A DNA stretch of 64,000 bases from contig JAOSJL010000001.1 in the NCBI GenBank assembly GCA_027494115.1, positions 767,926 through 831,925 on the forward strand. Reading direction: 5' to 3'. The stretch's first letter is position 1, and every line of letters starts with the position of its first letter. The position numbers and the translations under genes are program-made. Below the pieces are notes generated by a model. That model was not told where the DNA came from. It saw nothing but the letters and a program-made list of their open reading frames with translations, and ran no database searches. The stretch comes from Acidimicrobiia bacterium (GTDB lineage Bacteria; Actinomycetota; Acidimicrobiia; IMCC26256; JAOSJL01). This document shows positions 14,586 through 26,840 of this stretch, piece by piece.

Positions 14586-16802
14586 GTGCGACGTCCCAAG
14601 GCGAGCGAACTGGTTCTCGGTGTCGGTCTGCTCGCGGCGATCGGTACCGTGGCGTCGGGTATCGCTCCCCGCCTCACCGGGTGGGAAGAGGACTCGCCCA
14701 TCCACCGGGCCGTCTTCGGCAACATCCCCGATCCGATCTACTGGGCCTTCTACGCCACAGTCGGCGTCATGCTCTTCTACGTCGCGTGGCTCGTGTCACT
14801 TCGTGTCCGCAACTACGAACGCGGCCGCCCCGACAACCGTCGCACCACGAAGAAGAACGCCAAGCGACGCATGGAGGACTTCCGATCCGCGGTGTGGATG
14901 CAGACGCTGTTGCGGGACCCGGCCGCCGGCGTCATGCACTCGTTCATCTACTTCGGGTTCCTGATTCTCTTCGTCGCCACCGTGGTGCTCGAAGTCGACC
15001 ACCAACTCCCCGAATCGTTGAAGTTCCTCCACGGCACCGTGTACCAGGGCTACTCGGCCACCGCCGACTTCTTCGGCGTGATCTTCGTGATCGGGATCCT
15101 GTGGGCCCTGGCCCGCCGCTACATCCAGCGGCCCTACCGCATCCGCATCAAGACCAAGCCCGAGCATCTCGTGATCCTGCTCGTGTTCCTCGTGATCGGT
15201 GTGACGGGATTCGTTGTCGAGGGACTTCGCATCGCCGCCCAGGGCCGGCCGGCTTTCGAGCAGTGGTCATTCGTGGGCTATGGCTTCGCCGGTGTCTTCG
15301 ACGGCTGGTCGGAGGGGACACTGAGCGACCTACACCGCTGGGCCTGGGTCATCCACTTCCTGGCGTTCCTGGCGTTCCTGATCATCCTGCCGACCACGAT
15401 GCTGCGCCACATGATCACGTCGCCGATCAACGCCTACCTGCGGGACCGGGAGCGCCCGAAGGGCGCCATGAAGCCGATGCCCAACCTCATGGAAACCGAC
15501 CTCGAGACGTTCGGTGCCGTGACGGTCGAGGACTTCACCTGGAAGCAGCTCTTCGACACCGACGCCTGCACGATGTGCGGCCGTTGCACGTCGGTGTGCC
15601 CGGCCCATCTCACCGGCAAGCCGCTCGATCCCCGCGAGATCGTTCTCAAGGTCGGCGAGGTGATGGACGCCACGGGAAACCCGAAAGTGTCGCCGCCCAT
15701 CGGCACGGTTCCCGAGATCACGGTCACGGCGAACTCGGTGTTCGAACGGGTCAGCTCCGAGGAGGTCTGGTCGTGCACCTCGTGCAAGGCGTGCGACGAC
15801 ATCTGCCCGGTCAACATCGAGATCCTCGACAAGATCCTCGACATGCGCCGCTACCTGTCACTGATGGAGAGCGACTTCCCCACCGAGCTCGGCACCGCCT
15901 ACCGGGCGCTCGAGAACCAGCAGAACGTGTGGGGGATGAACCAGTCCGAGCGCGGCGACTGGGCCGAGAACCTCGACGACGAGGTCGTGATCGTCGATCC
16001 GTCGTCGGGCAACCTCGACCACGAGTACCTCTACTGGGTGGGCTGTACCGGCTCGTTCGACGACCGCAACAAGAAGGTCACCGAGGCCATCGCCACACTG
16101 CTCCAGCGCGCCGGGGTCGACTTCGCGATCCTCGGCCCCAGCGAGCTCTGCACGGGAGACCCGGCCCGGCGCTCGGGCAACGAGTACCTGTTCCAGATGC
16201 TCGCCATGCAGAACGTCGAAACCCTGAACGGTCTCGGCGTGAAGAAGATCGTCACCCAGTGCCCGCACTGCTTCAACACGATGCGCAACGAGTATCCCGA
16301 CTGGGGCGGGAACTACGAGGTCGTCCACCACTCACAACTCCTGAGCGAGCTCGTGGAGACGGGCGCACTCGACATGAGCGGCACGAACCTCGCCGAACGT
16401 GTCGCCTACCACGACTCCTGCTACCTGGGTCGCCACAACGACGTCTACATGGCGCCCCGCGAGGTGGTCGCTTCCATCGGCGGTGTCGACGTGGTGGAGA
16501 TGCCGCGCAACGGCACACGCGGCCTGTGCTGCGGCGCGGGCGGTGCGCGGATGTGGATGGAGGAGCACACCGGCAAGAAGATCAACATCGAACGCACCGA
16601 GGAGGCCCTCGCCACGGGCGCCGACCGCATCGCCACGGCGTGCCCCTTCTGTTTCGTGATGATGGACGACGGTGTGCGCGAGAAGGGCAAGGACGAAGAG
16701 GTCGTCGTGCAGGACATCTCGATGGTGATGCTCGACGCGCTGAACGCCCCGGTCACCGAGCGGGCCCCCGCCGGCACGGGCGAGGCCGAGTCCGGTCTCT
16801 GA
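14586..16802 (+). CDS. Membrane-anchored Fe-S oxidoreductase (N-terminal polytopic domain fused to an HdrD/GlpC-like module with 2x[4Fe-4S] and CCG domains)
   Basis: 738 aa. About 5-6 N-terminal TM helices. Ferredoxin motifs CTMCGRCTSVCP and CTSCKACDDICP. Cys-rich CCG halves (WVGCTGSF..., LCCGAGGARMW). As I recall, it resembles the mycobacterial Rv0338c-type reductase. Confidence 0.8.
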   Translation: MRRPKASELVLGVGLLAAIGTVASGIAPRLTGWEEDSPIHRAVFGNIPDPIYWAFYATVGVMLFYVAWLVSLRVRNYERGRPDNRRTTKKNAKRRMEDFRSAVWMQTLLRDPAAGVMHSFIYFGFLILFVATVVLEVDHQLPESLKFLHGTVYQGYSATADFFGVIFVIGILWALARRYIQRPYRIRIKTKPEHLVILLVFLVIGVTGFVVEGLRIAAQGRPAFEQWSFVGYGFAGVFDGWSEGTLSDLHRWAWVIHFLAFLAFLIILPTTMLRHMITSPINAYLRDRERPKGAMKPMPNLMETDLETFGAVTVEDFTWKQLFDTDACTMCGRCTSVCPAHLTGKPLDPREIVLKVGEVMDATGNPKVSPPIGTVPEITVTANSVFERVSSEEVWSCTSCKACDDICPVNIEILDKILDMRRYLSLMESDFPTELGTAYRALENQQNVWGMNQSERGDWAENLDDEVVIVDPSSGNLDHEYLYWVGCTGSFDDRNKKVTEAIATLLQRAGVDFAILGPSELCTGDPARRSGNEYLFQMLAMQNVETLNGLGVKKIVTQCPHCFNTMRNEYPDWGGNYEVVHHSQLLSELVETGALDMSGTNLAERVAYHDSCYLGRHNDVYMAPREVVASIGGVDVVEMPRNGTRGLCCGAGGARMWMEEHTGKKINIERTEEALATGADRIATACPFCFVMMDDGVREKGKDEEVVVQDISMVMLDALNAPVTERAPAGTGEAESGL

Positions 16803-16818
16803 GCTACTCGTTGTCGGC

Positions 16819-18852
16819 TCAGCCCTCGTCGAAGTTCAGGTAGTAGCGGCTCGGCGTCGGGCCGCGCTGGCCCTGGTACTTGGAGCCCTTCGACGTGGAC
16901 CCGTAGGGGTCGTCGGCTTCGGTGGTCATCCTGATGAAGCTGATCTGGCCGATCTTCATGCCCGGGTAGATGGCAATCGGAAGGTTGGCGACGTTGGAGA
17001 GCTCCAACGTGAGATGGCCGTCCCAACCCGCATCGACGAAGCCCGCTGTGTTCGAGACGAACACCCCGCCCCGGCCGGCGAGGAAATTCTCGATGTGGCG
17101 TCCGTTCGGTCTCACCTCGAGGTCGTAGATCGGCTCCGAGAACCCTGTGTCGTGAACCGCGACGACCGTGTCCCAGGACAGGTCGCCATCGGTCAGGCGC
17201 TTCAGCTCGTCGGCTGCGCCCTCCTCAACGAGTGGCTCATACACTTCATGCAGTCGACGGAGTGTCGAGAGACGGACGGCGTCGCGACCGGAGCGCCGCT
17301 CGATGTTGTTCAGATCGCTCGCGTGCTTGTAGCCCAGCCGCCGGGCAGCGTCGGTCTGGGACAGACCAGCGCGGCCGCGGAGTTCCGCGAGGAGGACATC
17401 GGGAAGAGGGACAGACGTCAGCAGCTTGTGCTCGCGTTCGGGCAGGTACACCTGGGTGAGGGGCAGCGTTGACGTCTGCTTGACGCAGGATCCTGCTCGG
17501 CGTCTCAGTCGTGCTGCGAGCAGAAGGACATCGCCGACAAGCCCCTCGGACGTCGTCCACACAGACATGCGGGCCTCGTCGCGCGACCCGTCGCCGTCGA
17601 CGAGGCCCTCCAGGAAGGCCTCGAGGAGGTTCGCAGGCCACCCGAATACAAGTGGGGGAATGCGCTTCTCGGGCGCATGGCCACCAGCCCCGATCCATGT
17701 GAGGAACTCGGATGCAACCGACGAACAACATGTGATCGCACCGGCAGAACGCGAGATGGGCAGGCCGAGCTCCTCCAAAGAGGTCTCGACACGGTCGAGA
17801 ATGGCCTGGTCGGTGTTGGACACGGTGAACTGGTGGCGCCTCCGTGATCCCTCCGCCACGTAGATCCCGAGCAACCACGCGAACTCCTCCGTCGGCCTCA
17901 CGACCGTCGACAACGAGTTGCGGCCACCCCTGACGACGAGTCGGTCCTCGGGGGTGAGGGACGTCTCGAGACCGGGAACCTGTCGCACGAGACTCAAGGG
18001 AAGGCGGGAGGACCGCCGGTAGTGGTCGGTGTGCTTGTAGCCCGAGGCTCGCAGCATCGAGTTCACGGCCCCGGCGGCGCCCGCGAAAGCCGACGCCACC
18101 GTCGGCCCCTCGACACTCAATTCACCGATCATGCCTTCGGGCACGAGGTCGACAACCCGGATCGGCGACCGCGCGTCCGAGTCCGGGCCGGGGACATTCC
18201 GCGGCACGGCGACACGAGCGCCAGCCACGAGCTCACCGGTTCTGATCTTGGCGAGTTGTCCCGCCCGATCGAGTGTGAAGAGGTTGTGCCCGGCCGTCAC
18301 CCGCACTCTGCGCCCCGACGAGAGCTCGACCTCGTAAATGCGATCTTCGGGACCTTCGTAGAAACCGGTGATTTCGTGGTACCCGACATCGAACGTCTCG
18401 GGGTCGAATGCGACGACACGCGCGGAGATCTCCTTGCCGACGAGCTCGCCGATCGACATGAGGCCGACACCTCGCTCGGTCTCCACGAGGATCTCTTCGC
18501 TCGCGGGAAGCGACGAGTGGATGAGAAGACCGAGGCGGCCGAGGCTGCTCTTTCCCTCGAGTCTGGCGACGAGATCGTTCGGCAGTGCGACGCGCTCGCG
18601 GGTGGAGCCCAGAACGAATTCGCCGGGGTGGAGGATGAACGAGCCGTCCTCCGGGACCTCCACGAGTTCGGTGAGATCCTCCTGAGGCTCCTTCGGATCG
18701 ATGTAGGGCGTCGTGTCGTTGCGGAAGACGCGAAAGAAGCTGTCGACGTGGAGGTCGACCGACGAGGGCTGCACCATGTCGAGGTCGAGCGGCTCGATGA
18801 CGATGCGCCCCGCCTCGAGCTCTTCGCGCAGGGTCTTGTCGGAGAGAATCAC
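16819..18852 (-). CDS. dcd: dCTP deaminase interrupted by an intein
   Basis: GTG 18852 ([12 protein letters not shown]...) is the likely start; the raw ORF begins at 18927. N-extein is 113 aa, ending [15 protein letters not shown]-extein is 76 aa, [35 protein letters not shown]...[14 protein letters not shown]. Together they are colinear with ~190-aa Dcd. Confidence 0.9.
17050..18513 (-). mobile_element. Intein with LAGLIDADG homing-endonuclease domain (488 codons) inside dcd
   Basis: Starts with Ser ([15 protein letters not shown]). Block B is [18 protein letters not shown] motifs are [10 protein letters not shown] and [11 protein letters not shown]. An HTH-like segment reads [24 protein letters not shown]. 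Ends ...[26 protein letters not shown], followed by Thr+1. Confidence 0.85.
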
Positions 18853-18929
18853 GACGGGAACCCTACCGGCGGGTGCGACGTCCCGGCAGCCCGGAACGGT
18901 TCGGCTCTTGGTACTCTGCGCCCTCACAC

Positions 18930-19003
18930 GCGGGTGTAGTTCAGGGGTAGAACATCAGCTTCCCAAGCTGAGAACGCGAGTTCGATTCTCGTCACCCGCT
19001 CCA
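18930..19003 (+). tRNA. tRNA-Gly (anticodon CCC), CCA encoded
   Basis: Hand-folded cloverleaf. Acceptor GCGGGTG/CACCCGC, D arm GTTC-AGGGGTA-GAAC, anticodon stem TCAGC/GCTGA with loop TTCCCAA, T arm GCGAG-TTCGATT-CTCGT, discriminator T plus CCA. Confidence 0.9.
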
Positions 19004-19030
19004 ATGTGAAGGTCCGGGTCGATCGGCAGA

Positions 19031-19639
19031 TCAGGTGCCCTGGAGCCTTCGCCGCTGAGCGGCCGAGGTCGACGGCGTAGCCTGCTGAATGCGGTAGCGG
19101 AGGTAGACCACACCGCTGCTGAAGACGTGCTCGTCACTGAGGTCAAGATCGATCCGCGTGTCGGCCGGTAGTGCGCTCTTGTGCCCACCGAGGACGACCG
19201 GCCAGACGAACAGGACCAGTTCGTCGACGAGCTCTGCAGCGAGGGCCTGGGCGGCGAGGTTCGGGCCACCAACCAGTAGATCCCTGCTGGCGGCGGCCTT
19301 CATGTCGAGCACCGCGCTGGGGTCGAAGTGGCGGTCGATCCGAGTCTTCGCGGTACGCGGCGCTGTCAGGGTCGAGGAATAGACGACCTTGCCCGCCGCC
19401 TGCCATGCGCTCGCGTAATCGGCCATGAGTTCCGACTGCGCTGCCAGGGTGGGATCGGTCTCCCACACGGCCAGCGTCTCGTACATGCGCCGCCCGTAGA
19501 GGTACGTGCCGACGGATCCCATGAGGTTGGTGATGAAGGCGAAGACATCGTCATCCGGTGGAGCCCAGTCGAAGGCCCCCTGTTCGTTCTCGGTCCAGCC
19601 GTCGACGGACATGTTCGAGGCGTAGATCAGCTTCGCCAT
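19031..19639 (-). CDS. Dihydrofolate-reductase-like (RibD C-terminal domain) family protein
   Basis: ATG 19639 preceded by AGGAGCG. MAKLIYASNMSVDGW...YLYGRRMYE...LLVGGPNLAAQALAAELVDELVLFVWPVVLGG is typical of the RibD_C/YwjB family. The upstream part of the raw ORF is not coding-like. Confidence 0.78.
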   Translation of the reverse strand: MAKLIYASNMSVDGWTENEQGAFDWAPPDDDVFAFITNLMGSVGTYLYGRRMYETLAVWETDPTLAAQSELMADYASAWQAAGKVVYSSTLTAPRTAKTRIDRHFDPSAVLDMKAAASRDLLVGGPNLAAQALAAELVDELVLFVWPVVLGGHKSALPADTRIDLDLSDEHVFSSGVVYLRYRIQQATPSTSAAQRRRLQGT

Positions 19640-25477: not shown

Positions 25478-26840
25478 TTAGTCGCGGGCCATGTTGGCGA
25501 ACTGGGTGAACTGGGGGATGAAGGCGAGCCGCACCGAGTCGGTGGGCCCGTTCCTGTGCTTGCCCACGATCACCTCGGCGATACCCCGGTCGTCGGACTC
25601 GGGGTTGTAGACCTCATCGCGGTAGATGAAGCACACCACATCCGCGTCCTGTTCGAGGCTGCCCGACTCCCGCAGGTCGGCGAGCACGGGGCGCTTGTCC
25701 TGGCGGTACTCGAGCTGGCGGTTGAGCTGCGAGAGCGCCATCACCGGCGTTTCGAGCTCGCGGGCGAGGATCTTGAGGCTCCTGCTCATCTCCGAGACCT
25801 CGATCTGGCGGTTCTCGGCCGAGCCGCTGCTGCTCATCAGCTGGATGTAATCGACCACGACGAGAGCAAGATCTCCGTAGCGGGCACGAATCCGCCGGGC
25901 CTTGGCGCGCATCTCCATCACGGTGCAGTGTGGGTTGTCGTCGATGAGAAGCGGTGCTTCGGCGAGGCGGCCGACGGCATGCGAGAGACGCGTCCAGTCG
26001 GCTTCGGGGATGTTCCCCGTGGCGAGCTTCTTCGAGTCGACACGCGCTTCGCTGGCGAGCAGCCGCTTGGTGAGCTCGAGGTGACCCATTTCGAGCGAGA
26101 AGAACAGCACCGGTCGCCGCTGCGTGAGCGCGACGTTGCGCGCCGCTCCGAGAGCGAGCGCGCTCTTTCCCATGCCGGGGCGCGCCGCCACGATCACGAG
26201 TGAGGAGGGTTGGAGACCCAAGAGCACGTTGTCGAGCTCTTCGTATCCGGTGGGAACGCCGGTGATGTCACCTTCGCGGTCGTAGAGGTACTCCAGCTGG
26301 TCGAGCGTGTCTTCGAGTGACGTGTGCAGGTCGACCGGGTCGGTGACACGACCACCGGCCACGTCGTAGACGAGCGATTCCGCACGGTCCAGCGTGTCGG
26401 TCACGCTGTCGGTGGACACGTAACCCATCTCGGCGATCTCTCCGCCCACCGCGATCAGGCGCCGCATCAGTGCCAGTTCACTGACGATTCCGGCGTAGTG
26501 ACCGGCGTTCGCCGACGCCGGCGTATTGGCCTGGAGAGTGACGAGGGCGGCCTTGCCGCCGATGGCATCGAGGAGCCCGACGCGACGTAGTTCCTCGGCG
26601 ATGGTGACCGGGTCGACAGGTTCACCCTGGCCGTAGAGGGCCATGATCGCCTCGAAGACGTGACCGTGCGCCGGCTTGTAGAAGTCGGAGGTGTTCAGGC
26701 GGCGCTCGCCCGCCGCCGTGATGGCGTCGCGCGACAGCAGCATCGCACCGATCAGCGACTCCTCGACCTCGAGGTTGTGGGGGAGGGGTTCGCAGCCCGT
26801 CCTCGCGGCGACGGCGCGCGTCGTCGATTGCCTGGACCAC
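25478..26840 (-). CDS. dnaB: Replicative DNA helicase DnaB (no intein); frame broken at 26779-26783
   Basis: Walker A ARPGMGKSALAL; typical DnaB N-domain PLPHNLEVEESLIGAMLLSRDAI. The first ~20 codons (GTG 26840, VVQAIDDARRRREDGLRTPP, GGGGGAG upstream) are in another frame. Removing one base from the G5 run (C5 on the coding strand) gives ...RTPPHNLEVEE. Confidence 0.88.

Follow-up and report, generated by a model that had tools for sequence, protein, structure and literature searches.

The window analysed here is a stretch of 64,000 nucleotides from the genome of an Acidimicrobiia bacterium (GenBank assembly GCA_027494115.1, contig JAOSJL010000001.1, positions 767,926 to 831,925 of the forward strand). 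It carries on its minus strand a dcd gene, coding for dCTP deaminase (Dcd), whose reading frame is interrupted by a long insert with the domains of an intein, and this insert is the subject of our report. The gene lies within an open reading frame (ORF) of 702 codons (16819..18927). Homologues of the precursor start with M/V-ILSD at the position matching a GTG codon at 18852, and a tRNA-Gly(CCC) gene abuts the longer ORF; this GTG (MILSDK...) is therefore almost certainly the real start. Translated from it, the gene encodes 677 amino acids (aa), and its frame of 2034 nucleotides is uninterrupted, with no stop codon and no frameshift. A first-pass annotation, made by a model from the sequence alone, had placed a LAGLIDADG intein of 488 residues at 17050-18513, splitting the HS/TAGF loop of a Dcd of 113 + 76 aa (a slash marks an insertion point throughout). 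The codon coordinates proved exact: the first codon of the intein is Ser at 18513-18511 and the last is Asn at 17052-17050, followed by Thr+1 at 17049-17047. The extein lengths hold with translation from GTG 18852, and the peptides quoted in that annotation, including GGVFVSN/TAGF, are all present in the translation. The identification itself is borne out by Pfam matches, PDB alignments, conservation among homologues and structure comparison with Foldseek, as described below.

Once the insert is left out, the two exteins form one contiguous Dcd, as the first-pass annotation had supposed. The spliced product of 189 aa matches the Pfam profile DCD as a single stretch over positions 1-153 of 153 (E 4e-52) and the NCBIfam equivalog model TIGR02274 over positions 1-179 of 180, again as a single stretch (E 7e-66, 221.4 bits, cut-off 92.8). 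With the insert left in place, both models match in two stretches that are interrupted at residue 113. The spliced product also aligns without gaps to residues 1-186 of Mycobacterium tuberculosis Dcd (PDB 2qxx), with 63% identity. Entry 2qxx was deposited as a bifunctional dCTP deaminase:dUTPase and, by homology to it, the host enzyme is probably bifunctional as well.

Alignment to Escherichia coli Dcd (PDB 1xs1) allows the insertion point to be placed with respect to the active site. The N-extein holds the equivalents of E. coli Ser111, Arg115 and His121 (S102, R106 and H112 in this protein), while the equivalents of Ala124 and of the catalytic Glu138 (A115 and E129) are found in the C-extein; the junction S113/T114 itself corresponds to V122/T123. 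The catalytic Ser, Arg and Glu expected of a dCTP deaminase are thus all present (S102, R106, E129). Mechanistic variants deposited in the PDB include H121A and E138A of the E. coli enzyme and A115V of the M. tuberculosis enzyme. Since the junction maps among the residues to which these variants belong (H121, A124, E138), the insertion point lies inside the catalytic loop. The four residues that directly follow the junction (T+1, A, G, F) are invariant among 44 full-length homologues of the precursor, the set in which all conservation counts given here were made.

The domains expected of a bifunctional intein can be recognized in the insert. Its matches to Pfam Intein_splicing (52.1 bits, gathering score 35.8) and LAGLIDADG_3 (40.3 bits, gathering score 22.5, E 4e-10) pass the gathering scores of these profiles, Hom_end matches with E 1e-6, and residues 374-426 of the intein match HTH_31, a helix-turn-helix (HTH) profile (32.8 bits, gathering score 27, E 9e-8). 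Two NCBIfam models fall just under their cut-offs, namely TIGR01445 intein_Nterm on residues 2-80 (24.0 bits, cut-off 24.5) and intein_Cterm (15.5 bits, cut-off 15.6). The residue set of a class 1 intein is complete (Ser1, Thr73-x-x-His76, Asn488, Thr+1). Among the homologues, Ser1, Leu2, Pro3, Thr73, Gly75, His76 and Asn77 are invariant in the N-terminal Hint part, and so are Asp464, Glu466, Asn476, Phe477, Asn488 and Thr+1 on the C-terminal side. Block F (ENFL.G) has Glu where many inteins have His, a trait common to PI-PkoII and the Dcd intein family. The first LAGLIDADG motif ends in ...YVAEG with Glu221 and the second in ...VDGDG with Asp308, and each of the two acids is kept in 43 of the 44 homologues. 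The HTH is conserved as well: no homologue departs from Q386 or E405, and at least 41 of them share G394, Y395, D400, L401 and N403.

An AlphaFold2 model computed with the 44 homologues agrees with this assignment. Its mean predicted local distance difference test score (pLDDT) is 85, with values mostly above 90 across the intein, and the HTH is modelled as four helices (precursor residues 485-495, 499-506, 511-518 and 528-541) with pLDDT above 90. In a Foldseek search with the model, 2cw7, the structure of PI-PkoII, was matched with E 9e-30 and TliVMA (7qss) with a TM score of 0.74 on target, and PI-PfuI and PI-SceI were found too; the extein parts matched M. tuberculosis and E. coli Dcd. PI-PkoII (2cw7) is also the PDB entry closest to the insert in sequence (E 9.5e-18).

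Table 1. Features of the interrupted dcd gene and the adjacent tRNA gene, in window coordinates.
Feature	Position	Strand	Description
dcd N-extein	18514..18852	-	113 codons, MILSDK...GLLIHS; Pfam DCD profile positions 1-112 = residues 2-113
Intein	17050..18513	-	488 codons, Ser1 to Asn488; Intein_splicing, LAGLIDADG_3 and HTH_31 matches
N-terminal Hint subdomain	18184..18513	-	Intein residues ~1-110; block A Ser1-Leu-Pro, block B Thr73-Ala-Gly-His76
LAGLIDADG endonuclease core	17419..17898	-	Intein residues ~206-365; LAGLIDADG_3 and Hom_end matches
Xre/Cro-type HTH module	17218..17418	-	Intein residues ~366-432, between endonuclease core and C-terminal Hint strands
C-terminal Hint subdomain	17050..17217	-	Intein residues ~433-488; block F IYDLEV...ENFLAG, block G GGVFVSN
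dcd C-extein	16819..17049	-	76 codons and stop, from Thr+1; contiguous alignment to M. tuberculosis and E. coli Dcd
tRNA-Gly(CCC)	18930..19003	+	ARAGORN; outside the element, opposite strand, directly upstream of dcd

In the public NCBI annotation, this gene is represented by a "helix-turn-helix domain-containing protein" of 546 aa (P0001, on a contig of 3.0 Mb) that begins at Met19 of the intein. Because the annotated protein begins inside the intein, the 113-aa N-extein is left unannotated and the metagenome-assembled genome (MAG) seemingly has no dcd. The deposited start thus hides the gene and should be corrected; the same mistake is likely in other MAGs.

Convergent with dcd lies a gene for a membrane-associated CCG/4Fe-4S protein of 738 aa, heterodisulfide-reductase-like (14586-16802, plus strand). 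When the window was translated in all six frames, no LAGLIDADG-type motif was found outside the Dcd intein. A promoter and terminator scan of 16500-19300 returned nothing exceeding the shuffled background. The dnaB gene (~25478-26743, minus strand) has no intein, as the first-pass annotation had stated, since its Walker A (ARPGMGKS) and DYIQL motifs sit 110 aa apart in an ORF of 421 aa.

The intein belongs to a large family of Dcd inteins that public data had sampled before and, in part, annotated. Among 5.8 billion proteins searched, more than 120 are Dcd proteins with the same intein at the same site (671-707 aa, 61-68% identical over full length), several of them named by the Joint Genome Institute (JGI) 'deoxycytidine triphosphate deaminase/intein/homing endonuclease'. 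In a genome scan with one genome per GTDB species, 43 species loci had an intein at the exact site (...IHS/SLP...SN/TAGF...). All 43 are MAGs and belong to Acidimicrobiia, Thermoleophilia and Nitriliruptoria, with two from Chloroflexi. The same-site inteins are 483-498 aa long, share 48-61% identity with the intein studied here and have identical architecture. The first-pass annotation implied that this allele had not been catalogued, which these numbers contradict, and Dcd inteins are also present in the literature (PMC6293099).

The two features which that annotation had singled out as unusual are both family traits. The penultimate residue (487) is indeed Ser, and His is absent, but this is no oddity of the present copy, as Ser occupies the position in 42 of the 44 homologues and Ala in the other two. 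Likewise, the Xre-like HTH is real but not unusual, for an HTH in the corresponding place is also seen in related inteins of RadA, RNase HII and other hosts.

Next to the occupied alleles, empty ones are plentiful. The nearest Dcd relatives of the spliced extein, 92-95% identical and 187-190 aa long, are intein-less. One of these empty genes (L045) is syntenic with ours: its dcd has 86.5% nucleotide identity, the convergent 738-aa CCG/4Fe-4S neighbour is 88% identical, and its uninterrupted site reads ...GGTCTCTTGATTCACAGC/ACCGCGGGCTTCGTCGATGCG.... A pattern scan found an uninterrupted dcd site in at least 120 metagenome contigs. The exteins of the nearest occupied alleles are at most 86% identical to this one. 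The intein shows no qualitative difference from other same-site Dcd inteins; it is a divergent member whose host dcd is closer to empty (92-95%) than to occupied (at most 86%) alleles. The search for occupied and empty alleles suggested in the first-pass annotation has thus yielded both kinds, in related genomes and at one and the same site, which is the sporadic distribution expected of a homing endonuclease.

The two Chloroflexi loci (L025, Chloroflexi bacterium isolate 3, and L032, a Thermomicrobiales MAG) are occupied at the same site as the actinobacterial ones. Their inteins are 50-51% identical to ours, much like some actinobacterial copies (48-49%), whereas their exteins are 50-51% identical as against 77% in those actinobacterial copies. 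Since Chloroflexi inteins are as similar as actinobacterial ones despite distant exteins, intein and host divergence are decoupled across phyla. Comparison of these sequences suggests cross-phylum transfer of the Dcd intein.

Further traces of mobility were sought. The codon of Ser(-1) is TCN in 40 of 41 occupied alleles and AGC in the first two empty alleles, a pattern that might be taken for co-conversion; it was rejected as such a signature because 100 empty alleles that share the peptide context show 80% TCN and 20% AGC among the matches listed. A phage origin was considered and rejected too. No match to the intein came up in a tblastn search of 50,697 phage records, the Dcd genes of phages have no intein at S113/T114 and at most 61% identity, and the known cyanophage Dcd intein differs in site and type. 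Nor does composition mark the intein as foreign. Its G+C content (GC) is 0.657 against 0.639 in the exteins, its GC at third codon positions (GC3) is 0.80 against 0.88, and GC is flat across the region, so that none of the three measures gives a clear signal. A contig of an Oscillatoriales cyanobacterium MAG (L044) also contains a stretch that matches residues 1-342 of the intein with 32% identity.

Not all inteins found at this site are complete. Two lack the HTH (L022, 439 aa, and L028, 416 aa), in a third (L031, 402 aa) the LAGLIDADG motifs are ruined, and a fourth (L035, 262 aa) has lost the LAGLIDADG core and retained the HTH. Mini-inteins of 152-182 aa are found in L036, L038, L040 and L041, and L039 has one of ~155 aa. 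Two loci (L034 and L037) are frameshifted within the intein. Because mini-inteins of 152-182 aa occupy the same site, the endonuclease and the HTH are dispensable for an open Dcd frame. To judge from these sequences, the population of occupied, empty and decayed alleles fits a homing cycle in which the intein invades, becomes fixed, loses its endonuclease by decay and is reduced to a mini-intein. With occupied, empty, HTH-less, endonuclease-dead, endonuclease-less and mini forms, the Dcd series is a well-populated example of this cycle in a small and easily assayed enzyme.

Selection on the individual parts was estimated among full-length copies as the ratio of nonsynonymous to synonymous substitution rates (dN/dS, method of Nei and Gojobori). 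As dS is near saturation, the ratios should be read as rough upper bounds: ~0.22 for exteins of occupied alleles, ~0.29 for the N-terminal and ~0.24 for the C-terminal Hint part. The LAGLIDADG core has ~0.35 and the HTH ~0.33, as against 0.64 in the linker. The value for the exteins indicates that the host dcd is under strong purifying selection in occupied alleles. By the same comparison of sequences, the endonuclease core and the HTH are kept by selection.

Taken together, the insert is, with high confidence, a bifunctional intein of the canonical class 1 type that is predicted to splice and to home. It is 488 aa long and separates Ser113 from Thr114 in a dCTP deaminase of the actinobacterial type. 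The following course of events would be expected. As each extein holds only part of the catalytic loop, with S102, R106 and H112 on one and A115 and E129 on the other, the 677-aa precursor is presumably inactive. Splicing would begin with an N-O acyl shift at Ser1, continue through transesterification by Thr+1 and the cyclisation of Asn488 to a final O-N shift, and would release Dcd of 189 aa together with a free intein of ~54 kDa. The latter would act as a LAGLIDADG endonuclease that cuts intein-less dcd around the sequence ...ATC CAC TCN/ACN GCN GGN TTC GTN GAY..., and its HTH probably extends the contact with DNA, by analogy with other homing endonucleases in which accessory DNA-binding modules do so. 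Recombinational repair of the cut allele would then copy the intein into it.

Several points weigh against this interpretation. Splicing and cleavage by the Dcd S113/T114 family are predicted from sequence and model. Ser stands in the penultimate position, and the lack of His there slows cyclisation of Asn in some inteins. A penultimate His in block G is common but not defining, and inteins that lack it do splice, for instance Npu DnaE, which ends in ...ASN; in the present family Ser is conserved throughout, and the interrupted dcd seems to be the copy that functions in these genomes. A second dcd or dut may exist in the genome outside the window. Homing, for its part, is faced with a partial correlation of extein and intein divergence (r = 0.54), by which much of the inheritance is vertical. 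Moreover, no donor or recent transfer is documented, as none of the other copies sampled exceeds 61% identity in the intein part, and no compositional trace of recent arrival is seen, as its GC3 is barely below that of the exteins.

The last three observations (correlated divergence, the absence of a close donor and the absence of a strong compositional contrast with the exteins) would also suit an intein that splices while its endonuclease no longer homes. It would then be a fixed vertical passenger whose LAGLIDADG and HTH parts are kept for folding and splicing, or because the free intein has taken on the part of a WhiA-like DNA-binding protein. L035, with its HTH retained after loss of the LAGLIDADG core, could be understood in this way, and WhiA provides a precedent in Actinobacteria for domestication of a LAGLIDADG domain joined to a C-terminal HTH (PMC10243135, PMC11701221). 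We nevertheless consider this explanation unlikely. Each catalytic acid survives in 43 of 44 copies, and dN/dS indicates purifying selection on the endonuclease core; the mini-inteins show that the Dcd frame stays open without endonuclease and HTH; cross-phylum sharing with decoupled divergence, together with empty syntenic sites, argues for ongoing mobility; and no Pfam WhiA model matched the intein.

Very unlikely, in our opinion, is a host-relevant DNA-binding role conferred by the Xre-type HTH on the excised intein or on the precursor. Such a role may consist, for example, in autoregulation of dcd or of nucleotide-metabolism genes, or in splicing conditioned by DNA binding. Retention of the HTH by L035 and the HTH dN/dS value make this reading compatible with the data, and if it were true, homing alone would not account for the persistence of the intein family, which would in part be due to a benefit for the host. 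We attach next to no credence to a pseudogene, that is, to an insertion that inactivates dcd with no functional splicing while the cell uses another route to dUMP: the missing penultimate His, an NCBI annotation with no full-length Dcd and the frameshifted related loci L034 and L037 might point that way, but the frame is intact over its 2034 nucleotides, all splicing residues are invariant, the exteins of occupied alleles have low dN/dS, and the truncated NCBI call is a start-codon artefact.

The scientific value of a further bifunctional intein of this kind is modest. For protein engineering, a family with Ser1/Thr+1 and a His-less block G that includes natural mini versions of 152 aa could be of some interest, with no conceptual advance.

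Among inteins of known structure, the closest counterpart is PI-PkoII/PI-TkoII, intein 2 of the DNA polymerase of Thermococcus kodakarensis (2cw7/2cw8), which stands here for the archaeal-type large LAGLIDADG inteins that include TliVMA (7qss), PI-PfuI (1dq3) and PI-SceI (1vde). In both PI-PkoII and the Dcd intein, a Hint domain is split by a two-motif LAGLIDADG endonuclease with an extra DNA-binding module, and 2cw7 is the best PDB match in fold (TM score 0.66 on target) as well as in sequence. The identity is only ~22%, however, and our intein resides in the Dcd of a bacterium, not in DNA polymerase or V-ATPase. Their penultimate residue is His where ours is Ser. The extra module of the Dcd intein scores as an Xre-type HTH and follows the endonuclease core, which may set it apart from the accessory domains of the solved inteins.

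Closer in sequence are inteins from other hosts. The nearest non-Dcd relatives are inteins of RadA (P0260, P0277 and P0297), of RNase HII (P0293 and P0299) and of another host protein (P0262), which had no Pfam match. These inteins are collinear with ours over nearly all 488 aa at 26-35% identity and share the Hint and LAGLIDADG parts; they differ in hosts and insertion sites, and the sequence similarity is distant only. An Xre/Cro-type HTH occurs at the same position in five of the six non-Dcd relatives scanned, the RadA intein P0277 having no HTH match at E 0.001. Since it is found at the same place in five of its six closest relatives outside Dcd, the HTH evidently marks a broader intein clade.

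The order of modules, LAGLIDADG and then HTH, is also that of WhiA, a domesticated transcription factor of Actinobacteria with a LAGLIDADG domain and a C-terminal HTH (PMC10243135, PMC11701221). WhiA differs in having no Hint domain and in the loss of its catalytic residues. A relation to WhiA was considered and rejected, as none of its Pfam models matched, and the likeness is architectural only.

Inteins in Dcd have been described before. In cyanophage vB_AphaS-CL131, the Dcd protein gp069 contains an HNH intein that has been demonstrated to excise itself in E. coli, and the same paper cites earlier Dcd inteins in a proteobacterium and a Chloroflexi bacterium (PMC6293099). We found no paper on the actinobacterial Dcd intein family, in a search that did not reach the full earlier Chloroflexi report, which possibly concerns the same S113/T114 family. 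The gp069 intein shares with ours both the host enzyme and the catalytic loop. When gp069 was translated and its spliced form aligned, its insertion site mapped to the equivalent of R106/L107, which precedes S113/T114 by seven residues. The two inteins are otherwise unlike: that of gp069 is an HNH intein of 351 aa with Cys1/Cys+1, ours a LAGLIDADG intein of 488 aa with Ser1/Thr+1, and the tblastn search of phage records mentioned above detected no sequence relation between them.

Another Dcd site, K101/S102, is occupied in P0087 (residues 102-447) and in L039, in both alongside the S113/T114 intein. The intein found there is an unrelated LAGLIDADG intein that begins with ALALD... and ends with ...THN/SS. 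At least three independent intein sites are thus situated within 13 residues of the Dcd catalytic loop (GK/SSLGR/LGLLIHS/TAGF), in line with the clustering of inteins in catalytic sites.

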